A stretch of DNA of 64,000 nucleotides from contig CAWDFP010000006.1 in assembly GCA_963801605.1 (NCBI GenBank), positions 160,001-224,000 on the forward strand. Reading direction: 5' to 3'. Both the position numbers and the translations under genes were made by a program. The stretch comes from an uncultured candidate division Zixibacteria bacterium (lineage in GTDB: Bacteria > Zixibacteria > MSB-5A5 > UBA10806). How positions within the stretch are numbered: position 1 is the first letter of the stretch; each line of letters starts with the position of its first letter. A model generated the notes under the pieces. It was not told the DNA's origin and ran no database searches. It worked only from the letters and a program-made list of their open reading frames with translations. Of the stretch, positions 31,894 to 50,252 are shown in pieces.

Positions 31894-33270
31894 TTACTCC
31901 AAATCTGGCACATAATGCCTGACGCGGAATGTGGCACCCAATGATATCGCAAGTTTGCGGCAGGCCTCGATATCTACACCCGGCAGATCGACAACTGAGG
32001 CTTCCGTATTAATATGATTGGCTACGCAGCCGCGGATAAATTTGAGCATCGCCTCGTAAGCGTCTTTGCCTTTATCGGGCTGACAAAGCGTAAGATAGGT
32101 ATCGGCGTCTTGAGCGTTAAGGCTGACCGAAACTTTATCGACCAAACCGGCAATCAGCGATGGCAGATCTACTTTGTTTATCAAGCTGCCGTGACCGTTA
32201 GTATCGAGTCGGATCGGATAATTTCGGGATTTCATAGCACGAGTAATCTCCAGAAGCTCTTTAAGACGAAGAGTTGGTTCGCCCAGTCCGCAGAATACTA
32301 TTTCAGTAAACTCTTTTTCCTTATCGATTGCGGCGATGACATCAGAGGCGGCAGGTTCCGATTTCAGAAGTAAATAGTGACCGGATACAAAACCGTTTCG
32401 AAATCTAAAACAAAATGAGCAGTGATCGCTGCAGCGGTTAGTGAGATTAATATATAAAGATTGTCGAATCTTATAGACTATCTTGCCAGACTTTTCAATG
32501 GGGAGATTAAACAGGCGCCGGGCATTGTAGGATGTGATCCGCTCGATATCATCGAATGTATAAGGCGAGAAAACCTCGGAGAGTTTTTCAATTACAAAAC
32601 GCACATATTCCGGTTGATTGCGCTTGCCTCGGAAAGCTTGAGGGGTAAGGTACGGGGAATCGGTTTCGGCTACGATGCGAGAAAGTGGCAGGGAGCCGGC
32701 CACCTCGGAACGGTTTGATTTGGGATAAGTTATTGGCCCGGAAAAAGATATATAAAAGCCCAGAGCGGTTGCCGCCTTAGCCTCAGAGATAGTTCCCGGA
32801 AAGGAATGCAATACCCCGCGTTTGACTCCGGATTCCCGCAAGATGGCCATCGAATCGGCCATCGCCTCTCTGATATGCACCACCACCGGCAAATTGAGCG
32901 CTTTGGCTAAATCAAGTTGTTCGCGAAATACCTTTATTTGAAGCTCTCTCGGAGATAAATCCCGATAGTAATCAAGCCCGATTTCGCCGACGGCTACGAT
33001 TTTTTTTCCTGATTTGGAATCTTCTTCAATCATCCGACGTAGTTGAGCAAGATAATCGGGCGCACAGCTTTTAGCGTCATGGGGATGGACACCAACGGAG
33101 GCATAGATATTTTCGTAACGCTGCGCCAGTTCAAGCGAGGCACGGGAGGTCGCCAGGTCGGTGCCAATATTAATGATCGCCTCCAAACCATGTTCAAAAC
33201 CGGTCCGAATAATCGAATCGCGATCGGAATTGAATTGGGGAAAATCAAGATGAGCGTGGGTATCGATCAT
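31894..33270 (-). CDS. tatD: TatD hydrolase fused to a TatD-associated radical SAM domain
   Basis: MIDTHAHL, GVHPH, GEIGLDY, ETDSPYL; then YINLTNRCSDHCSFC (CxxxCxxC) and FCGLGEP; ATG 33270 chosen from the motif and promoter. Confidence 0.9.
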   Translation of the reverse strand: MIDTHAHLDFPQFNSDRDSIIRTGFEHGLEAIINIGTDLATSRASLELAQRYENIYASVGVHPHDAKSCAPDYLAQLRRMIEEDSKSGKKIVAVGEIGLDYYRDLSPRELQIKVFREQLDLAKALNLPVVVHIREAMADSMAILRESGVKRGVLHSFPGTISEAKAATALGFYISFSGPITYPKSNRSEVAGSLPLSRIVAETDSPYLTPQAFRGKRNQPEYVRFVIEKLSEVFSPYTFDDIERITSYNARRLFNLPIEKSGKIVYKIRQSLYINLTNRCSDHCSFCFRFRNGFVSGHYLLLKSEPAASDVIAAIDKEKEFTEIVFCGLGEPTLRLKELLEITRAMKSRNYPIRLDTNGHGSLINKVDLPSLIAGLVDKVSVSLNAQDADTYLTLCQPDKGKDAYEAMLKFIRGCVANHINTEASVVDLPGVDIEACRKLAISLGATFRVRHYVPDLE

Positions 33271-33563
33271 GGACGGTAATATATCATGAAATGAAGAGAT
33301 GTCAAAGGGATGGGCGTCTGTAAAAGCAGGCATTGTAAAGCCCGGTACCATATCGTGGACCATATATAGTACGAACCGGCGGCAATTGCCAGAATTAGTT
33401 TGACAAACGACTTGAGATACCTAAATTTATCCCCAGCGAATTGCGGGGGCGCAAAGGCAAGAATGGGAATAGCCTCAATGGGTGTTAATTTCAACTCTTC
33501 ACCACGGCTTCAATAACCATAAACATTTGGATAAAAATAATTTAGTATTAATAGGAGACGACA

Positions 33564-34110: not shown

Positions 34111-35629
34111 ATGAAAAAGGAATTTTACCCCGCTGGCGCCATCGCCATTTTTATCGTTCTAACTATAATTTTTATGCTTCCTACGATTTCTCAGGCGCAA
34201 AATGACACCTGGTCAGTCTCAGCGTCGAATTGGATGCAATACTGGTACAATCAGCCTGAAGCCAATTGGCTGCGCAGCAGCCCGATAGATACACTCCCTC
34301 CGGATACTTTGAATTCGGTCAGGGATTCGCTGGATAATAGATTTAGCGTCGATTTCAATTTTGGCAACTTTTACGCCGGGGCATGGCTGCGTACTTACCA
34401 GCCAAATTTCAATGGGGATGCCAACGAGAAAATCACTCAGAGATATTTCGGATGGAAACAGGACGGAATAACTATTCACGCCGGCAATTTCTATGAGACT
34501 TTCGACCGCGGTATGACGCTTAAACGCTTTTCTCGATGACGCCGTGAATTTCGACAATAATCTCGATGGTATTAAAATTTCGGGACTTTATGATCATTTC
34601 GATTTCGATGCGATTTCCGGACGGGCATTCAAATTCCAACAGGGATTTAACGAATTTACGCTTCAAAGAGATTTTACGATCAGAGGCATCCGCGGAGCAA
34701 TTAAGCCGTTTACCGGCTTCAAATATGGCGGCTCTTTTGTGATATTCAAGCAAAATAGCAGTACGCAATTCCGGCAATCTGACAATATCCAGCTTTATTC
34801 CATAAACCACGAAATAAACAAGGGTCCTTTCAATTTTTACGGGGAATACGCCGTTAAAGAGGGAAACACGCCGGAAGAAGAAAAGACCGATGGCGATGGC
34901 ACTTACCTTTCAGGCTCGTTCAGCCATCGGCTCTTTAGCGTCTACGGGGAATACAAGAATATCTTTCGTTTGCTATATCCCGGCCCAACCGGAGCGTTCA
35001 ACACGCCCCCGCCGGTGAGTCACCAGGGACGAAGCCTGTCCTCGCTGGACGGGACACCAGGCGAAAGAGCTTATCAGATCGGCGGTTTGATTTCCCCAAA
35101 CTTCGATCTTAATTTCGATCTGGCATATTCGGAATCGTATTCCCGCGGGCTTGCAAACAGGCTCTATCTATCGGAAAAATACGCGGGCGCAAGATGGGCC
35201 CCGATCGAGAAGGTAGTGGTGAACGGTCACTGGGACCGAATTGACTATACTGAGGATGAGATCGAGACCTATTTTGACGGTTACTATTATGTCAATCCCG
35301 TCCAAACAGTATCTTTCTCGGCTTACACTAAACGTTTCTGGCCAACCGGGAGAAAAAATTATCACGAGGATTATTTGACCCTGGGCTATTCCCGAGGCAA
35401 TATCGTTGAGGTAACAGTTGGGGGCTCGCTCTCGAATAGAGTTTTCAGCCCCGGGGAGAAAAATGATCCCAAGAAACTGGCTTCTATTGAGCTAACCTAT
35501 CATTATCGATCCCATGAGTTATCGGTCTTTTACGGCGGCGAACGCGGGGGCCTGATCTGCTCATCCGGCGTCTGCAGCCTTCGACCGACTTTCAAGGGAA
35601 CTCGGATAATTTTACTATCGCGCTTTTAA
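34111..35629 (+). CDS. DUF6029-like outer-membrane protein (extra A near 34523)
   Basis: GNFYETFDRGMTL then (N)AFLDDAVNFDNNLDG after removing one base; C-terminal RGGLICSSGVC motif. Confidence 0.7.
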
Positions 35630-36943: not shown

Positions 36944-38239
36944 CTATTTTAGCAAAACCATTTTTATACTCTGAGACTGATCGCCCGCAACCAGCTTCGC
37001 ATAATACACTCCGGAAGGGACATTGTTTGCATCCCATATTATCTGATGGGGGCCTGGTTGTTCAAGGTTCTTTGAAAGAATCGCGATTTTCTGGCCTAAG
37101 AGGTTGTAGATGGAAAGCTCAACCTGTTCAGCTTTCGGTAAATTAAGGCTTATAGTCGTTCGGGCATTAAATGGATTAGGGTAATTTTGCGATAGCGAAA
37201 AACGACTGGGGATCCCTGGCTCGTCCTTAATATCCGTCGGAGAGAATCTCAGAATAATCAGGGAATCCCGGTCGGCAACATAAACATAGTTATCAAGAGC
37301 GTAAATCCCGGTAGCAATATATGGCGTATTATAGGCTGCCGCTAATTGAGGTGCGGCTAAGTCGGATATATCAACTACCTGGATACCCTCAACACCAAGA
37401 GCGAGGTAAGCATAATTACCGGAGGCATATACGGCATGCGCCCAGGCGGGAGTAGGGTATGACGCTCTTAAGGTTGGACCTGTTGGATAGGTAATATTAA
37501 TAATTTGCATGCCTCCAACTTCATCGGCAATATAGGCATGGGAGCGATATACGAAAAGATTATTGGCATATCCGGGAGTATCGTAGAATCCAAGCAGCGT
37601 TGGGCTGGCGGAATTTTCGATAGAAGCAATTTCCAGGCCGAAATTGCCATCGGCAATATAGGCAAATGAGCCCAAAACGAATACGCCCAGAGGAGATCCA
37701 TAGGGATCCATTAGAGTTCCGGCAAGCGCGGGATTGGTCCGATTTGATATGTCAATTATTTGCAGTCCGGATGCTACATCAGCCACATAGGCATAGGTCC
37801 CGGTGACAAATACGCCAGTCGCCACGTCGGGAGTATCATAACTTCCCACTAAAATGGGGCTGGCGGGATTGATGATATTCACTATTTGCAGCCCCTGATC
37901 TCCGGTAGCCAGGTAAGCATAGCTGCCGGTGAGATATATCCCATTTCCCTGGCCAACAAAACTAATTTGACCGACAAATTGCGGATGATTAGGCTGGGCA
38001 ATATCAAAAATCGTAAGATCGCTGCTTGAAAGGCAGTAGGCTCGGTTTGCCATGACACGAACATCATTTATATTTGAGCATGCCACCGAACCGATATATT
38101 CTATCTCCTGCCCAAAAGCTGATGGTATAGGTCCAAAGATAACGATTAGAAAAACTAAATTAATAATCCATCGACTAATATATTTTCCGTCGAGTGAAGT
38201 TTCAATTAATGCCGTATCGATGTGAATTATGTTTTTCAT
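36944..38239 (-). CDS. LVIVD-repeat secreted protein with NYPNPFN sorting domain
   Basis: Repeated YAYVAD...GLQIIDIS.P units; C-terminus IKMVLLK. Confidence 0.85.
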   Translation of the reverse strand: MKNIIHIDTALIETSLDGKYISRWIINLVFLIVIFGPIPSAFGQEIEYIGSVACSNINDVRVMANRAYCLSSSDLTIFDIAQPNHPQFVGQISFVGQGNGIYLTGSYAYLATGDQGLQIVNIINPASPILVGSYDTPDVATGVFVTGTYAYVADVASGLQIIDISNRTNPALAGTLMDPYGSPLGVFVLGSFAYIADGNFGLEIASIENSASPTLLGFYDTPGYANNLFVYRSHAYIADEVGGMQIINITYPTGPTLRASYPTPAWAHAVYASGNYAYLALGVEGIQVVDISDLAAPQLAAAYNTPYIATGIYALDNYVYVADRDSLIILRFSPTDIKDEPGIPSRFSLSQNYPNPFNARTTISLNLPKAEQVELSIYNLLGQKIAILSKNLEQPGPHQIIWDANNVPSGVYYAKLVAGDQSQSIKMVLLK

Positions 38240-38377
38240 TATTAAAATGCCTCTCGTCAATTGGCTATATTTATTTCATTAACAAAATAGCAACTGGTCG
38301 GTGTTCCAATATTTATGGCGGGTGGGTAGGAATGGATAAGGGCTGTCAACCCCAAGAAGCTTAGATTCTAATGAGAT

Positions 38378-38809
38378 TTATTTTCCCAGCGATCTCTTGG
38401 TATGCGCGATGAGCCCGCCCGAGAACAATATTTTGGAAATAATCTCTGGATATGGGGAGAAATTTAGAATCTCCTTTTTCGCGGTAATTTCGCCCTTATC
38501 GAAATCGATTGAGATATTTTCGCCCGAAGCGATCTTATCAACAGCGTCGGCATTTTCGATTAGCGGCAGGCCCAAATTTATGGAGTTGCGATAAAATGTT
38601 CGTGAAAATGATACCGCGATGACGCATGCCACACCGGCAGAATCAAGCGTTTCCGAAAGCTCGACAATTGAGCCAAAATGCTTACCCGCAATTATAATTG
38701 CACCCTTTTGAAGTTTAGGCAACTGCTCGGATTGGCTATCATCCGATAATAAAAGGCGCTCGTAGTTATAATCCAGCTTTATAGCCGGTCCAGAAATCTG
38801 TTTTTTCAT
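38378..38809 (-). CDS. Degenerate LeuD/aconitase swivel-domain small subunit
   Basis: IIIAGKHFG, AGVACVIAVSFSRTFYRNSINLGLP and GGLI retained; GCGSSRE and the N-terminal DTD motif absent. Confidence 0.8.
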   Translation of the reverse strand: MKKQISGPAIKLDYNYERLLLSDDSQSEQLPKLQKGAIIIAGKHFGSIVELSETLDSAGVACVIAVSFSRTFYRNSINLGLPLIENADAVDKIASGENISIDFDKGEITAKKEILNFSPYPEIISKILFSGGLIAHTKRSLGK

Positions 38810-40405
38810 TTAAGATATTTCCTGGGATCGGTAATAGCGCCATCGATAGCGGTAGCTACCGCCGTGGCGGGAGAAACCTGATATATCTCCGTTCCCGAAA
38901 AGCTGCAATTGGGGGATCGGACACAACTGGCTGTAGTAACTGCCAATTCACCCGGCTCAAGATAGCCGTCATGAGCATCGACACAGGGGCCGCAACCGGG
39001 GCTAAGCACGATACAGCCGGATTCAATAAAGGTTTTAACAAAGCTTCTTTCCAGCGCTTCAGCCAGGACTTTTCGAGAGCCCGGGATAATCATCATGCGG
39101 ACATCATGACTGATGCGATGGCCGCGAAGCATTTTGGCAGCGAGTTCGAGATCATCTATTCGTCCATTGGCGCAGCAACCCAGAACCACCTGCTCGACTC
39201 TCTTCCCTTCCAGCTCTTCAAGGGTCCCGGAACCATCGTTCCCATAAAGCGAACTGGCCCGGGGAGTGAGAGAGGAGACATCGACAGATATCTCGTTGCA
39301 GTAGGCGGCATCAGAATCAGAGACGGTTGGCGTAAATTTGGTTTTAACTATTCGGCGTAGATATCGCGCCGTCAAATCGTCAAATGGCACCAGGGCCGTT
39401 TTAAGGCCGGCGTTGGCCGCCAGACATGTAAGAGTAACTCGTTCGGATACTGTCAGTGAGGAGATAACGTTGCCATAAAATTCTACTACTTTGTATTCGG
39501 CGCCGTCTTTAGTCAGGTCACGCGCCAGCTTCAGCATGATATCTTTGGCATATACGCCCCTGGGCAGGCGGCCGTTGAGATTGATCTTGATCGTTTGAGG
39601 CACTTTCAACCAGATCTTTCCGGTTGCCCAGATTGCGGCCATCTCGGCGGCCGTAAAGCTTGTCGAAAATGCTCCCAAAGAGCCGTAGCAGGACGCCTGA
39701 GCGTCGGTTGACAGGGCCAACTGGCCTGGCAGGATAAGCGCATTTTCCAGGATCAGTTGATTGCCAATTCCCTGACCGATATCGTAAAAAGTCTTGATTT
39801 TCTGCTTTTTGACAAACTCACGGACGCTTCGATGCGCCGGCGATTCATGCCCTCGTTCGCTCCCAGGCCGCTGGTCCAGAGTGATAATTATTTTGGATGG
39901 GTCCCAGACTTTGTCTATGCCGTACTGGCTGAACTGTCGGATGATTTGGCCGGTATTATCATGAGAGATAGCAAGGTCGGGTTCGATACTGACGACATCC
40001 CCAATTTCAACCCGTTTCAGGCCCGATTTTCTGGCAAGCATTTTCTGGGCAATAGTCTCGCGGCGCGAGCCTTTGCGGTGATTGGAATCGGGAAGCGCCA
40101 GTTCCAGTTGTTCCAGCTTAAGCTGGGCGGGCTTATTTTCGATTTGATATTTTCGCCGCCACTGCCTGAAACCGGCCCTGGAGATTACTGAGCTCTTCGC
40201 CAGCCCGGGCATCATCGCCGAAACGTTCCCAGAGCTCGCGAATTTTATCCTCGGTATATTTGGGAAAGGAATAGGCGCTGATTTTTTTCTTGGTACGCCA
40301 GTAAGTGACAAGCCTGGCCGGAACGCCGCAAATCTCACCGATCTTTTTATCGGTGCGATATTTCTTTTGAAGCTCTAAAAGCTCTTTTTTCTTGGGAATT
40401 CTCAA
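38806..40405 (-). CDS. Tandem-HTH fused aconitase-family (LeuC/HacA-like) large subunit, probable pseudoenzyme (1-nt insertion at 40185-40186)
   Basis: ORFs 40133..40405 and 38806..40338 join as GEELS-ISRAGFRQWRRKY; TIAQKMLA, SHDN, GCCANGR and PGCGPC present. Confidence 0.8.
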
Positions 40406-40896
40406 GATTTTCTCTTCAGACGGTCGAATCCGGGCTTAAGCATATCATAAATGTCGGTAAGCGATATAGACTGAATCTTAATATTGCCAATGACGGCGGT
40501 GAAGCTGGTATCTCCCTTGAAGCGCGGGACGACATGAATATGCAGGTGCTCCTCGATACCGGCTCCGGCAATTCGTCCCATATTCATCCCGACATTGAAA
40601 CCATCGGCTGGCATAGCCTTTTTGATAATTGCCACCGATTTCAGGGATAAGTCGAACATTTCATTGGCCTCGAGAGGAGTGAGCTTGCCGGGATCGCTCT
40701 TATGGGCATAAGGGACTATCAGGAGATGACCGCCGTTGTAGGGATAGCGGTTCATTATAACGAAATTTTTCCGGCCTCTGAAGAGAATCAGGTTTTCGCG
40801 ATCGGACCTCATCTTGGACCGTTTGCAAAAGACACATCCATCCTCTTTAGATCCCAGTATGAAATCGCGCCGCCAGGCAGCCCACAGATTTTTCAT
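40402..40896 (-). CDS. HIT-family nucleotide hydrolase (Ap4A phosphorylase/hydrolase-like)
   Basis: LWAAWR, CVFC, NRYPYNGGHLL, AGAGIEEHLHIHVVPR. Confidence 0.9.
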   Translation of the reverse strand: MKNLWAAWRRDFILGSKEDGCVFCKRSKMRSDRENLILFRGRKNFVIMNRYPYNGGHLLIVPYAHKSDPGKLTPLEANEMFDLSLKSVAIIKKAMPADGFNVGMNMGRIAGAGIEEHLHIHVVPRFKGDTSFTAVIGNIKIQSISLTDIYDMLKPGFDRLKRKS

Positions 40897-41136
40897 AATC
40901 GCGGGGATAAAAATACAATATTCGCAAGGGCAGTCAAGACAATAATGGGTTGAACGGATGTGCCTATTGAACTGCGACTGCAATAATTCGAGAATGTTTT
41001 TAGGGAAAATCGATAGATATGTGCCTATTTCAGTAGCAGGAGCTTTTTGGTCTCCGATTGCTCGCCTGCTATGAGCCGGCAAAATAAACTGCCGGACCAG
41101 GCGATCCGACTACGATGCGATTAGTGACAATTTAAC

Positions 41137-43255
41137 TTATTTCAGCGCTACGGTGCTATCGGCCCACTTGTCGTAGTGATCCTGGCTGGTGAGAAGAAGA
41201 ATCTGGTGGTTCTCCGAAATTTCCTTGAGCACTTTCATGGCATTTTCCATGCGCTTCTGATCGTAGCCGGCGAAAGGATCATCAAGTATCATCACCGAGC
41301 TTTTATCCTCGGCGATTAGCTCCGCCAGGGCCAGCCTGGCGGCCAGATATATCTGTTCGGTTGTTCCCGACCGAAAGACCCGATTCGGGATCAAGCCATA
41401 TCCGACGGCATCGGAAAAGACCTGAAATTTCATGGTAGATTTATCGAAACGTACTTTGGAGTAGCGGCCTGATGTCAGTTTATTCAAGATATCGGAGGTG
41501 CGGCTATTAAGCACTTCAAGTGTCGAAACAAGCACATTCTGCCGGGCCTCGTTGATACAATCGGCGGTCAGATTGAGCATCGTGATGGCTTTATTAAGAG
41601 ATTCGACCCGTTCGCTGAACTGTTCCCGGCGCTCGATATAGCCGGCCAGAAGTTCGGCGCCTCCCTCGGCATTCTCAAGTTGCTGGCACAAGAACGCCCC
41701 GTTCCCGCTCCAGGTCTTTGACGCGATCCTCAAATTGGGTGATGATCTGTCTTTGACGGTTTAGCTCGCTTTCGTCGGCGACATACTGGGCCAGTTCTTT
41801 TTTGATCTTGGTGATTCTGGCAGTTGTCTCGTCAAGCGATTCGAGGCGGCTTTCAAGCTCCTGGGATGATTGACCTTCAAGAATGCCCTCATAGGTTTCG
41901 CGTTCCCGGGAAACCTGTTTTTCGAGATCATCAAATTGCCAGATGCTACGCCTGAGATCATTAAGCGACGATACCGAGTACCTGGCCAGAAGTTCGTTTA
42001 AAGCCGATGTCTGACCTTGAAGTTCAACACTCAGTGTGGTTAATTTTGATTCCAGCTTGGAAGAGTGGTCACCAAGATATTTACGATGCTGATTGCGGGA
42101 AACTGCAATACCCAGCCCAAATATAGTCATTGCAATGGAGGCCACAACGCCATAACCGGATATTGAATTCAGGAATGACAAAAAGCCCATAAAATATGAC
42201 AGCCCCATAACGACTGATCCCAACCCGCCCAGAATAGCGGAAACGATATAAACCTGGCCAATTTTGTAGGCCTCGAACTCTTCCTTAGCTTCGGCAGCAT
42301 CGGCCTCAAGCTCTCTGCTTTTGGGTTGAAGATAGCCCAGGCTTGATTCGATGTTATTTACGGTTTCAATATCTTTGGAATCGAAATTTTTCAGGCTAGC
42401 CTGCCGGTCACGAAGGATTTTGATTCTTTTAAGCGATTCCTGCGCCTCTTCCAGTTTCAGCTCTAGTTCCTGACGTTCGCGGGTAGCCACCACGAAACCA
42501 TCCTCAAGCTCATTGGCTTTGAGACTTTGTTCGAGGTGTTCCTTTTTAGAAGCGAGGTCCTCGCGGATATTTTTATAAGCCATTTCGACTTGAATAAGAT
42601 CAGAGCGTTTAGATTTCAGATTGGTTATTTCGCGGTTGAGCTTTTCGATATTATAATCAAGTTCCTTAGAGACCTTATCGAGATGAGCCAACTCACCGCT
42701 GCCAGTTTCATTTCCGGCAATTTCGGCAATTCGCTTCTTAATTTTAGCCAAAACATTGGATGCGGCCTTTTCCTCTTTGCCGCCGGTAACAAGCGATTCC
42801 AGTTTATCTTTTATCGCCTCGAAAGAGCTTTCGATTTCATTTATTTCCCCCTGGGCAATACAAGCGGTGGCCCTAAAGATTTCCTCGGATGGCATCCCCA
42901 TCTGCTCGGATAGCCACTGCTCCACAAAATCAGGGGCCTCATTTTTGATCCCGGCAGCCTCGTTTTCGAGCTCGGTTTTGCCGGCCTTAAAATCCTTTAG
43001 AAGGCGATAAGATATGCCCTCGATATTAAGCACGGCTTCGAGAGCGGGCAGCTCGTTGGTTTCCCAGCGGGTTAAGCCAGCGATTTCCTTTCGTCCGGAG
43101 ACAGGATCGAGGAACAAAGCCGCGGTGATAGCGCTGGCCAGAGTCGATTTTCCTGCCTCGTTTGGCCCTTTGATAAGATTCAGGCCAGGAGTGAAATCGC
43201 AGGAAAAGTTTTCAAACTTACCAAAGTTATGAAGGAGTAGATGAGAAATTTGCAT
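41137..43255 (-). CDS. SMC/SbcC (YhaN-like) AAA ATPase with internal TM segments (apparent indels near 41690 and 41370-41405)
   Basis: NFGKF, Walker A GPNEAGKST, Q-loop IAQGE, coiled coils, (L)SSGTTEQIYLAARL, Walker B MILDDPF. Confidence 0.85.
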
Positions 43256-43256
43256 C

Positions 43257-44390
43257 TTACCAGACCTCCTTCCCTGTCAAAAGCGTGTAGCCGGTCTTAA
43301 GCGATTCCTCCAGCTCCAGCCGCTGGACGCCATCAGCCTTCTTTAATCTTTCCACCATTACCTTTAGATATTGGCCCAGTATCGTCTTTTCCTGGACTTT
43401 AATTTCGGAGATATCGGGCAGCACCCTGGTGCGATCTTCAAATGAGAGCTCCAGGAAATTACCCTTCATCTCCTCATGAATCGCTTTGATATTCAGACCG
43501 GATTCAAATAGCGCCAGGCCCTCAAGAGTAGCTCTCAAGATAACATCCGGCCCGGCGAGACTGTCTAACTTTTGCTTGAGTTCATCGACATTGACGACTT
43601 CTTCCATTGAAATCTGAGTTTCTTTCCAGATCAGACTGCCAATATGTTTAGGCTCAGTCGCAAGAAGATCGCCGTCAAGAGTGATCAGAAGGCAATTGCC
43701 GGAATTGGGCGAATCTGAGAAGATAATCTCTGGCGATCCGGAATAGGCAGCCTTAATTCCCACTGCGGTAAGATCGAGTCGCTCACTTTGGCCGCCAAGA
43801 GCGGCGTAGCTAAAGCCGCCTTTAGCCAGATCGTCGGGAGTGAAACTGTGATCTTTTCCGGCATCAGCCTTATCATGAATCAGATTACCATAGATAACGG
43901 CAATATGATTGGCTGCTTTGCCAAATTTCCGAATCCTCAACGCGGGGTTTTCACGTCCTGAATCAGCCGTTACAGGGTGACCATAGACGGTAGCAGATAG
44001 ATTAGGAAGTTCGATATATGGCTTATCCGAATCTGCCAATATATGAAGGTTTTCCGCTGGCGAAAGGATCTGCCACTCCTCCCAGAACGATCCTTTTTGA
44101 TAAGGATCTCGCGCCCCCGGCAGGACCACAACGGGGATTTTCTCCAGCCGTCGAATCTGGGCCAGAAAGAAGTTGAGCAGGTTCTGAGAAATGTCGGGGT
44201 TGTCGAATGTATCGCCTGCCAGTATTAGAAGATCCGCCTTCTCCTCGATTGTCAGATCGATTAGCTTGACGAAGGCGTTTTTGATAGCCACGCGGAGCTT
44301 ATCGCCCGGCACGGCCTGCCCCGATTTTGTCGGGTCCTGCCCGGAGAAAGTTGCCCCCAGGCGCACGTTAGAGGATTGTATTATTTTCAT
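43257..44390 (-). CDS. SbcD/Mre11 (YhaO-like) metallophosphoesterase-fold protein with degenerate metal ligands
   Basis: LILAGDTFD and YSGSPE retained; DxH, GNHD and GHxH replaced by SNVR, GARD and GGQS. Confidence 0.8.
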   Translation of the reverse strand: MKIIQSSNVRLGATFSGQDPTKSGQAVPGDKLRVAIKNAFVKLIDLTIEEKADLLILAGDTFDNPDISQNLLNFFLAQIRRLEKIPVVVLPGARDPYQKGSFWEEWQILSPAENLHILADSDKPYIELPNLSATVYGHPVTADSGRENPALRIRKFGKAANHIAVIYGNLIHDKADAGKDHSFTPDDLAKGGFSYAALGGQSERLDLTAVGIKAAYSGSPEIIFSDSPNSGNCLLITLDGDLLATEPKHIGSLIWKETQISMEEVVNVDELKQKLDSLAGPDVILRATLEGLALFESGLNIKAIHEEMKGNFLELSFEDRTRVLPDISEIKVQEKTILGQYLKVMVERLKKADGVQRLELEESLKTGYTLLTGKEVW

Positions 44391-46426: not shown

Positions 46427-47788
46427 TTATCCTTTTAAGGTCAACCTGCAGGCGGCCTCGATATGAAATGTATGCGGAAATAGGTCCATCGGCACAGCTC
46501 TATCGAGATTATAGCCGTCATCGACAAGGTCCTTGATATCACGAGCCAGGGTGGCGGGATTACAGGATATATATACCATCTTCATCGGTTTTAGCTCAAG
46601 CAGAGATTTGATGACGTCGGGATGACAGCCGGCGCGCGGCGGATCTAAAAGAACCAGATCATATCTCTCATCTTTTGCGGTTTTAAGATAATTGGCCACG
46701 TCTGAAATTACAAAGCGGCAGTTAGTGACCGAGTTAAACTTGACATTGGCGTCGGCGTCGGCGATAGCATCAGCTACCGACTCGACGCCCACAACCTCAG
46801 AAACGAGGTCGGAGAAATAGATCGCGATTGTTCCAGTACCGGTGTAGAGATCGAGCATGCGGTCGGAGCTTTCGGGTTGGGCAAGTTCGATTGCCAGATC
46901 GTAAAGGCGCTGTACCTGATAGCTATTGGTCTGGAAAAAGGAGTTGGCTGATATACGATAGCGATGTTCCCCAAGCTGTTCGTAGATATGATCCGAGCCG
47001 TAGAGAATTGTTTCTTTCTCGCCTCTGGCGATATTAGCCTTTTCGGGATTGACCGTATGAGATATCGAAACAACCGAGCTGAATTTGGCGCCGATTTCGT
47101 CTGCCAGAATCTTGAGCGCCGGGAAGTCGCCTTTTCCGGTAACGAGATTTACCAGCATTTGGCCGGTGAATTTCCCCTCGCGGATAACCAGAAAACGCAG
47201 ACATCCGGTATGATCGATGATATGATATGGCGGCAAACCCAGTTCGACTGAGCGGGTGCGGACAAATTTAACAATTTCATTCGATACTTCGGATTCGAGA
47301 TGGCATCAGTTGAGTTGAAAAATATCCTGAAACCGTCCCGCGACATGCAGCCCCAGCAGAGTTTCGCCGTCACCGCCAACATGAAATGAGAATTCCATTT
47401 TATTGCGATAGTAATAAATCTTGTGAGCGCCAATTATCGGTTCAACCGGAGGCTCTTTGATTCCTGCAATATGAATCAACGCCTGGCGAACCTGATCCTC
47501 TTTATATTTTTTCTGAATGGCATATTCCAGATGCTGCCATTTGCAGCCGCCACAGTATTCGAAATGCTCGCAGGCCGGGGTAATCCGGTGCTCCGATGGA
47601 GTAACTATACGGGCGATTTTAGCCTCGGCATAACTGCCGCGCGCCTTTTGTACTTCGGCCTCAATTACATCTCCAGGAACGGCCGATTCGACAAAAATTA
47701 CAAATCCATTGGACCTGGCTACGCCCTTGCCGCCGAATGCCAGATCGGTTATCGTTAAAGTGAGAATTTCGCCTTTCCGCGGCCGCAT
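46427..47788 (-). CDS. rlmD: 23S rRNA m5U methyltransferase RlmD (frameshifts near 47240-47310)
   Basis: TRAM domain, CEHFEYCGGC, YRNKMEF, SFFQTN, DPPRAG, YISCNPATLARD, DLFPHTFHIE. Confidence 0.9.
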
Positions 47789-49411: not shown

Positions 49412-49678
49412 CTAAATATCAATATGATCGATTATGGCTACTATCACGGTTCGGACCGGGACTTCAGATTGGCCCACCACAGCCATTGCTGAACGACCCT
49501 CCTGGGTAATGAGCACCAGATCACCGACTCCAGCATCGACGGAGTCGATTGCCACCACCGATTCGCCGGTCGGTGCTTGCTGCGGAGTGAGAATCGCGAC
49601 ATTAAGGAGGCGCTGGTTTTTATAAACCGAATGTTTAATCGTGGCTGCGATATTGCCTGTGACTTTTCCAATCAGCAT
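49412..49678 (-). CDS. EutN/CcmL family microcompartment pentamer (BMC-P)
   Basis: GKVTGNIAATIK, VAIDSVDAGVGDLVL, IVAIID. Confidence 0.9.
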   Translation of the reverse strand: MLIGKVTGNIAATIKHSVYKNQRLLNVAILTPQQAPTGESVVAIDSVDAGVGDLVLITQEGRSAMAVVGQSEVPVRTVIVAIIDHIDI

Positions 49679-49679
49679 A

Positions 49680-49940
49680 TCAGCCCAACTGATCCACTAT
49701 GCCTACGATGGCAGCATCGACAGGAATCTTTTTTTCCGGTAGACAGTAGGTTGCCTCGCGAGCGGCCACCCACCAGACAAGTTCGCCGTCGCCGGCCGAA
49801 ACTGAATCAGCGGCCACAATGGGAGCGCCTTGCGGTTTACCGGTATTATCGACCGGCTCGATGATGCGCAGCTTTACTCCCAATAGCTGGGGGTCCTTGA
49901 TTGTGCAGACAATGGTTCCTTTGACGCGAGCGAGTTTCAT
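49680..49940 (-). CDS. EutN/CcmL family microcompartment pentamer (BMC-P)
   Basis: MKLARVKGTIVCTIK, VAADSVSAGDGELV, PVDAAIVGIVD. Confidence 0.9.
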   Translation of the reverse strand: MKLARVKGTIVCTIKDPQLLGVKLRIIEPVDNTGKPQGAPIVAADSVSAGDGELVWWVAAREATYCLPEKKIPVDAAIVGIVDQLG

Positions 49941-49946
49941 TCTCAA

Positions 49947-50252
49947 TCAGCTTTTATTCATAGCGGTGTTATACGTGGTATTGCCCGAAAACTCGATATG
50001 ATCAATTATCCCAATGACGATAGCATCGACCGGCGTGGTGCTCATATTCTGCGCCTGACGGGCCGAGGAGCCGCGTACTACCAGCACCAGATCGCCTATG
50101 CCGGCATCGAGCGAATCAAGGGCCACGATTGGCGCTCCGCTTTTAGGCGCACCCGATGTATCGGCCATTTCCAGAAGCAACATTTTATGGCCACTGAGCT
50201 TGGCATCCTTGCGGGTGGCGACTACGGTTCCTTTTACTCTGGCTATTTCCAT
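49947..50252 (-). CDS. EutN/CcmL family microcompartment pentamer (BMC-P)
   Basis: ARVKGTVVATRK, VALDSLDAGIGDLVL, GSSAR, PVDAIVIGIID. Confidence 0.92.
   Translation of the reverse strand: MEIARVKGTVVATRKDAKLSGHKMLLLEMADTSGAPKSGAPIVALDSLDAGIGDLVLVVRGSSARQAQNMSTTPVDAIVIGIIDHIEFSGNTTYNTAMNKS

Follow-up and report, generated by a model that had tools for sequence, protein, structure and literature searches.

What does a protein do that carries a predicted DNA-binding head on the body of an enzyme whose active site has decayed? This question is raised by a three-gene operon on the minus strand of a 64,000-nt stretch of DNA (the window) from an uncultured candidate division Zixibacteria bacterium (GenBank assembly GCA_963801605.1, contig CAWDFP010000006.1, positions 160,001 to 224,000). 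The operon encodes an HIT-family protein, a fusion of two tandem helix-turn-helix (HTH) units to a LeuC/HacA-type aconitase-family body, and a degenerate LeuD/HacB-type small subunit (Table 1). An earlier interpretation made from the letters and their translations (the sequence-only reading) took the operon for a dedicated Fe-S-sensing transcription factor built by adding HTH domains to a dead enzyme. Our analysis, which draws on sequence comparison and structural models, points to a DNA-binding regulator that would dock on the beta clamp (DnaN) and whose dead body probably still bears a cluster; we put the probability of this reading at about 45%.

Tandem-HTH head and clamp-type linker

The head (104 aa) was modelled by AlphaFold (AF2) as two three-helix units with a mean predicted local distance difference test score (pLDDT) of 85. 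Direct matches to Pfam HTH_23 were weak and below cut-off (14 of 17 relatives at E<=1); a profile of the head recovered stand-alone multi-HTH repeat proteins at E values down to 3e-40, and those proteins pass the HTH_23 cut-offs. The structural neighbours of the head are DNA-binding HTHs (Z 5-6.3), led by the mycobacteriophage repressor 7tz1 (Z 6.3, root-mean-square deviation 2.1, 44 aa) and including Mos1 (Z 5.5), GcrA (Z 5.3) and Reb1. ESM Atlas feature matches were all of HTH type but all scored below 0.8 and are leads only, and the head profile matched no PDB sequence in a meaningful way. Median identity among degenerate copies was 0.65 in the head and 0.39 in the body, and each predicted recognition helix has invariant residues, which suggests that the DNA site is a fixed one. 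The two HTH-like units that had been read by eye at the N-terminus were thus recovered as a predicted tandem three-helix HTH by the model, the profile matches and the structural neighbours, and the head very probably binds DNA.

The uncharacterised multi-HTH proteins (HTH_23-like; for example P0124, P0147 and P0154) share the head's repeat unit of ~45 aa and form stand-alone arrays of 2 to >10 units without an enzyme body. Seven of them (P0124, P0147, P0154, P0155, P0159, P0160 and P0163) consist almost wholly of tandem copies of this unit, up to ~12, and in P0163 the array is fused to archaeal TFIIB. All 10 array proteins that were looked up are singleton clusters.

Profile search with the head found it in 239 of 251 Zixibacteria genomes, almost always as a single copy, and in 194 of 198 high-quality genomes and 119 of 120 genera of the phylum; it looks like a good phylum marker. 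Some records of the locus set are titled Ignavibacteria, Terriglobales or 'bacterium'; they fall inside the Zixibacteria tree, and the titles are probably loose labels. Quick trees and FastTree trees underlie the statements on clades made here, and the sequences are kin, so that counts overstate their independence.

Between head and body, Q99, L100, [LF]102 and [LFM]104 are kept in all 184 de-duplicated full-length copies of the wider conservation set, with position 103 free. These columns fit the hexapeptide clamp-binding consensus Q-phi-x-L-x-L, exemplified by QVELEF, QLVLGL and QLSLPL (E. coli), as given in the available parts of 10.64898/2026.05.27.728225; such motifs are also covered in the accessible part of PMC3836487. 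The sequence-only reading had passed over this linker motif. The strict pattern is present in 70 of the 72 complete GTDB copies, against a background of 34 in 1753 long open reading frames (ORFs) of the window's genome. It occurs in 7 of 112 other search matches of at least 150 aa and is rare among the multi-HTH repeat proteins. In the monomeric full-length model the linker is unstructured (positions 97-111, pLDDT<50). DnaN, encoded at G000:C6:531000-532115 in the window's genome, is conserved across 25 relatives, and pentapeptide clamp motifs were found in DnaE (QSTLF) and MutS (QISLF) of the window's genome. These results favour, on balance, a linker that docks on DnaN. According to the portions available of the same two sources, Hda/HdaA, Pol IV and the C-terminus of Pol III alpha share the pattern Q-phi-x-L-x-L/F; they are ATPase regulators or polymerases with measured clamp binding, whereas clamp binding by the fusion is predicted from sequence.

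Catalytic residues and cluster cysteines of the body

Compared with Methanocaldococcus jannaschii MJ0499 (4nqy/4kp1), the window's body has DQ for DH, IGNQ for VCHQ, DAQA for DSHT, CLAAN for NMAIE and TTASCVR for STSNRNF, which leaves 6 of 15 catalytic or substrate residues (DH, HQ, DSHT, NxxxE, NRN). It still passes the NF001614 and TIGR01343 cut-offs with the fold of aconitase domains 1-3 present, and the model of an 85%-identical homologue matches 4kp1 closely (Foldseek E 1.7e-49, TMt 0.92). The small subunit has lost DTD and reads GKHFGSIVE where an intact relative has GSNLGCGSSRE, a motif whose GSSRE we take to hold the equivalent of the general-base serine. In the aconitase family a serine is the general base (available part of PMC8184944). 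Every motif change that the sequence-only reading had listed was seen in our alignments. The archaeal-type isopropylmalate/citramalate isomerase and homoaconitase (LeuC/HacA + LeuD/HacB; MJ0499 4kp1/4nqy, MJ1003 4kp2) have the fold, the two-subunit layout and the three cluster cysteines in common with the window's proteins, but the fusion adds the head and linker, its catalytic motifs are broken and GCGSSRE is missing. Judged by these residues, it is not an active LeuC/HacA hydro-lyase, and isomerase activity is almost certainly absent.

Scoring of the 72 complete GTDB copies (8 truncated copies were dropped) separated two classes with nothing between them: 18 intact copies with all 15 catalytic positions and the three cysteines, and 54 degenerate copies with at most 10 of the 15 positions. 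An intact small subunit adjoins 16 of the 18 intact bodies, with one more 1.2 kb away and one locus too short, and a degenerate small subunit adjoins 11 degenerate bodies. No small subunit was found within 1.2 kb of the other 43 degenerate bodies, 38 of which have at least 600 bp of downstream DNA. The state of the small subunit follows that of the body across loci, which upholds the earlier suggestion of a coordinated catalytic loss, and homologues with the same fusion and lost residues are common. In the databases the fusion genes are named isopropylmalate dehydratase, an annotation that does not hold for most copies. Separately, five loci of lineages without an adjacent LeuD (L051, L063, L073, L091 and L095) carry, on the opposite strand and 2-3.5 kb upstream, a LeuD-like gene that may be the small subunit in a displaced position.

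The order of events can be read from the intact class. Because 18 of the 72 copies carry this head on an enzyme with nothing lost, the comparison places the joining of the head first and the death of the enzyme later, and the earlier idea that HTH domains were added to a dead enzyme to make a sensor was not upheld. A FastTree of HIT and head, with the body left out, forces at least two changes between the intact and degenerate states, and regaining 15 residues is implausible; we infer that catalysis was lost at least twice. Ratios of nonsynonymous to synonymous change (NG86 omega) in degenerate pairs were 0.004-0.052 for the head and 0.043-0.168 for the body (10 pairs with usable synonymous divergence, dS), and in intact pairs 0.041-0.084 and 0.026-0.091 (n = 8), after pairs with saturated dS had been dropped (7 of 17 degenerate, 1 of 9 intact), the remaining dS often being near saturation. 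The head of degenerate copies is thus at least as constrained as that of intact ones. The window's copy gave 0.042 (head) and 0.112 (body) against its nearest relative. The dead bodies are under purifying selection and not, as had been raised as a possible refutation, in neutral decay.

The ancestral substrate was sought among related pathway genes. Neither LeuA nor homocitrate synthase was found in the window's genome, which is 87% complete and whose only HMGL protein is of HMG-CoA-lyase type. A leucine-pathway enzyme was rejected as a candidate: 0 of 121 genomes pass the bacterial LeuA cut-off, and of the intact-type families f8 (0/3) and f12 (0/2) gave no LeuA match whatever, f3 giving 1/1. 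Loss of catalysis where a single-chain aconitase took over was likewise rejected for want of a clean link, NF005558 being absent from the intact families (f8 0/7, f12 0/3, f3 0/1) and from most members of the degenerate families f1 (1/11) and f2 (0/7). The window's genome also holds separate intact genes of LeuC/D, homoaconitase and aconitase type. At L003 (G000:C6:1548313-1552386) and at L135/L136, an mdh-like gene, a two-subunit LeuC/LeuD-type pair and an NADP idh stand together, which suggests a two-subunit aconitase in a tricarboxylic acid cycle cluster; several genes of the L003-type cluster are frameshifted in this assembly.

The cluster cysteines behave differently from the catalytic residues. 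In the window's copy C411, C471 and C474, noted before as retained, align with the three [4Fe-4S] ligands of MJ0499. Within the window's clade (56 of the 184 rows) the triad is complete in 53 copies and each cysteine is kept in 95-98%, against a median retention of 67% for the 120 residues that are invariant in intact enzymes; catalytic residues fare poorly there (H178 in 7 of the 56, S235 in 9, R494 in 9, N327 in 11, E331 in 17). A cysteine was gained at 492-496 in 34 of the 56, all 34 with the triad intact, and in 0 of 79 intact enzymes. Position 493/494 presumably lies near the fourth iron, and the window's cluster is perhaps fully ligated. In aconitase itself the cysteine triad provides the ligands and the fourth iron has no cysteine, according to the part of PMC8184944 that is available. 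On this pattern of conservation the body of the window's lineage likely binds an Fe-S cluster.

Beyond this clade the triad is complete in 4 of 11 copies of the sister clade and in 6 of 38 of the other degenerate lineages, 15 of the 38 having none left. In the GTDB set, the triad of the 54 degenerate copies is complete in 14, reduced to two cysteines in 8 and to one in 16, and wholly absent from 16. On these alignments, selective conservation of the three ligands is a property of the window's clade only. Since one to three of these cysteines are gone from 40 of the 54 copies, the sequences exclude a family-wide iron sensor, and the core role of the family is not to sense iron. The proposal of a dedicated Fe-S sensor thus keeps its footing in the window's clade and loses it as a family function. 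Among the near precedents, IRP1/IRP2 (both matched by Foldseek) and moonlighting bacterial aconitases reuse the aconitase fold for regulation as is proposed here. IRPs bind RNA through the apo-enzyme cleft; in the fusion, the part predicted to bind nucleic acid is an HTH head apart from the body, and cluster ligands are gone from most lineages. With ligands kept in 14 of 54 copies, the family as aligned does not qualify as an IRP-type switch.

The locus, its expression signals and its neighbours

Table 1 Coordinates of the operon features in the window
Feature	Position	Strand	Basis or remark
HIT-family gene	40402..40896	-	164 aa; Pfam HIT; Ap4A phosphorylase / ATP adenylyltransferase type
HTH unit 1 (aa 6-39 of fusion)	40289..40390	-	AF2 helices H6-16, H19-26, H30-39; structural matches
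HTH unit 2 (aa 52-85), frameshift inside	40150..40252	-	AF2 helices H52-62, H65-72, H76-85
Extra single base splitting the fusion gene	40185..40186	-	Sequence, unbroken homologues and other split genes
QLELAL hexapeptide, beta-clamp-type motif (aa 99-104)	40093..40110	-	Low-confidence linker; conservation
LeuC/HacA-type aconitase-family body (aa 117-532)	38806..40056	-	6 of 15 catalytic residues left, fold retained
Cluster ligands C411, C471, C474	39172-39174, 38992-38994, 38983-38985	-	Alignment to MJ0499
Clade-specific extra C494	38923-38925	-	Cysteine comparison by clade
Degenerate LeuD/HacB-type small subunit	38378..38809	-	143 aa; without DTD, without GCGSSRE
Sigma70-type promoter TTGACT-16-TATTTT	40910..40937	-	Upstream of HIT

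As assembled, the fusion gene is in two pieces: a 90-aa ORF starts at 40405, the LeuC-type frame runs to 38806, and the minus strand reads AGT-A-ATC at the break (40189-40183). Removal of one base, as first suggested in the sequence-only reading, joins 73 codons from 40405 to 459 codons from 40185 and gives a fusion of 532 aa. Leaving out the window's own, all 119 homologues among the best 120 of 2452 proteins are unbroken fusions of head and LeuC (526-555 aa), and the N-terminal ORF is separate in none of them; this set, like the locus set (the best 80 of 194), is skewed toward the window's relatives. Other genes are broken in the same manner. Compared with relatives, an SbcC-like gene (at 41690) and a gene at 34520 are each interrupted by a single frameshift, the NADP and NAD idh-like genes of the same genome are both in two pieces, and leuD-like genes are fragmented too. 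Given 119 unbroken relatives and similar splits in neighbouring genes, it is very likely that the break arose in assembly; of the three public contig sets compared with it, none spans 40185. A natural split form of the fusion received no support, the nine shorter matches lying mostly on short contigs, and no longer fusion was seen among 186 candidates of 932-2660 aa, which is weak evidence. The two stop/start overlaps described earlier, TTGA (40402-40405) and ATGA (38806-38809), were confirmed in the sequence.

The HIT gene directly precedes the fusion in each of the 80 loci. Its product has an intact HIT triad (HLHIH), as do those of all 74 loci examined, and its top PDB match and nearest solved relative is 3ano (E 7e-31), with a score under the NF052622 cut-off; it shares the HxHxH triad of the Rv2613c-like HIT proteins of the Ap4A phosphorylase type. 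The suggested tie to dinucleoside-polyphosphate turnover was borne out as synteny only. The -10 box of the HIT promoter lies 13 nt before the ATG with no Shine-Dalgarno sequence, from which the window's HIT transcript is inferred to be near-leaderless. Across 77 loci a sigma70-like site precedes HIT, with a mean score of 12.8 against 9.9±0.13 for shuffled sequences. Within the loci L027-L106, the -10 box of the best site is 29-66 nt from the HIT start wherever the enzyme is of intact type (18 of 18), and a Shine-Dalgarno sequence can be seen in most of these; it is 5-15 nt from the start in 46 of 56 degenerate-type loci, the window's copy among them. This split may reflect lineage history only. 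A genome-wide search for a leaderless signal in the window's genome was flat.

Directly upstream of the operon, on the minus strand (41137-44390), lie an SbcD/Mre11-like phosphoesterase and an SbcC/Rad50-like ATPase, the latter with its frameshift at ~41690; SbcC-like genes lie close upstream in 23 and SbcD-like genes in 20 of the 80 loci. Convergent with the 3' end of the operon is a plus-strand gene (36944-38260) for an LVIVD-repeat beta-propeller with a Por_Secre_tail C-terminal domain. Farther off on the minus strand, the gene at 46427-47788, presumably an RNA methyltransferase-like one, aligns to relatives in one frame and has an in-frame stop near 47306. Three tandem small ORFs at 49412-50252 (minus strand) resemble, as we take it from their translations only, EutN/CcmL microcompartment vertex proteins, and a TatD-like nuclease at 31894-33363 (minus strand) has an apparent C-terminal fusion to a radical-SAM-type domain with CxxxCxxC, seen by eye.

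Proposed mechanism and its alternatives

We propose that the HIT protein, the fusion and a vestigial LeuD are made from the operon; the fusion would bind DNA through its two HTH units and dock through its linker on DnaN, the mark of newly replicated DNA, so that it would regulate transcription or initiation in step with replication. The model is phage Mu MuC, described in the available part of bioRxiv 10.1101/2025.01.04.631326 as a transcription factor that binds DNA, has a conserved motif for binding the clamp and depends on DnaN. By this analogy, transcriptional control on freshly replicated, clamp-loaded DNA is a tentative output, somewhat short of an even chance. No homology is claimed: as far as that source goes, MuC/Mor is a small phage activator with the pentapeptide QHDLF, and the fusion belongs to the core genes of the chromosome and joins a hexapeptide to an enzyme body. 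The dead body would be a folded scaffold; in the window's lineage it probably carries an Fe-S cluster and might modulate the activity, although tuning by the cluster state is on the whole unlikely. Historically, an ancestral bifunctional head and enzyme, still intact in some families, would have lost catalysis at least twice; LeuD would then have decayed or been dropped, while the body stayed as a scaffold or allosteric module.

Several observations weigh against this proposal. The Z scores of the head reach 6.3 at most, values that common helical arrangements also give, and a Foldseek search with the head gave 0 matches at E<=0.001. For the Bacillus subtilis clamp, the binding of hexapeptides is weaker by a factor of ten or more, and these motifs may be less widespread (10.64898/2026.05.27.728225, in the part available), and the DinB of the window's genome has no motif among the patterns tried. 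In the 184 copies P92 and L95 show the same invariance as the motif columns, so the linker may be a longer contact for dimerisation or RNA polymerase that resembles a clamp motif by chance. Finally, no conserved operator was found: expectation maximisation on 67 non-redundant upstream regions yielded only an A/T tract overlapping the promoter.

The alternative that survives best, unlikely as we hold it to be, is a dedicated iron or redox sensor in which DNA binding would be turned on or off by cluster occupancy and the linker would have nothing to do with the clamp. It draws on the excess retention of the triad in the window's clade and on the gained cysteine, found only together with an intact triad and never in intact enzymes. 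However, outside that clade the triad decays below an unchanged head and linker, any cluster that is still bound could have a purely structural role, and the invariant Q-L-x-L-x-L is left unexplained. Many sensors combine an HTH with a dead enzyme, and a classical regulator of this kind, whose body senses an organic acid or a dinucleotide (perhaps tied to HIT) and whose linker serves dimerisation or RNA-polymerase contact, would account for the purifying selection on the body and for the constant HIT neighbour with its intact triad. We rate it as rather improbable: the active-site residues have been replaced differently in each lineage, unlike one conserved ligand pocket, and the LeuD that closes the site is missing beside the 38 degenerate copies with sufficient downstream DNA.

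The invariance of the clamp-type motif, the SbcC- and SbcD-like genes upstream and the operator search that found none would also suit a non-transcriptional accessory of replication or repair, with a head that grips DNA with little sequence preference and a motif that recruits it to forks or lesions. Its chances seem slim, for HIT is preceded by a promoter that belongs to the operon itself, most loci lack the SbcCD-like genes, and the invariant residues in the predicted recognition helices hint at a fixed site. A true pseudogene in the window, or an active enzyme with changed specificity, is very improbable despite the frameshift in the assembled sequence, given the low omega of both parts, the lack of a second lesion, the many other split genes of the assembly and the missing general-base motif of the small subunit.

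Regulators made of an HTH and a dead enzyme, regulators derived from aconitase and phage factors that use the clamp are all known kinds. Our literature search, whose coverage left out most subscription papers, found no paper on a fusion of such a head, a clamp motif and an aconitase body, and the clamp-dependent transcription factors that it did find were phage proteins only (MuC/Mor, T4 late factors). In its fullest form, which we regard as improbable, the clamp-docking regulator would be a phylum-wide, host-encoded transcription factor that rides the clamp and reads the DnaN remaining on freshly copied DNA, its output gated in the window's lineage by an Fe-S cluster re-ligated by a fourth cysteine that the dead active site has gained, and would link iron or redox state to replication-coupled expression. 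If the clamp-docking reading is true, a single-copy chromosomal clamp-dependent factor across the phylum would be a new coupling of gene expression to replication. Within the family the stages can still be seen side by side in living lineages: intact enzyme, dead body with cluster cysteines, and cysteine-free scaffold without small subunit, with the head constant throughout. Such a series makes the conversion of an enzyme into a regulator directly testable.

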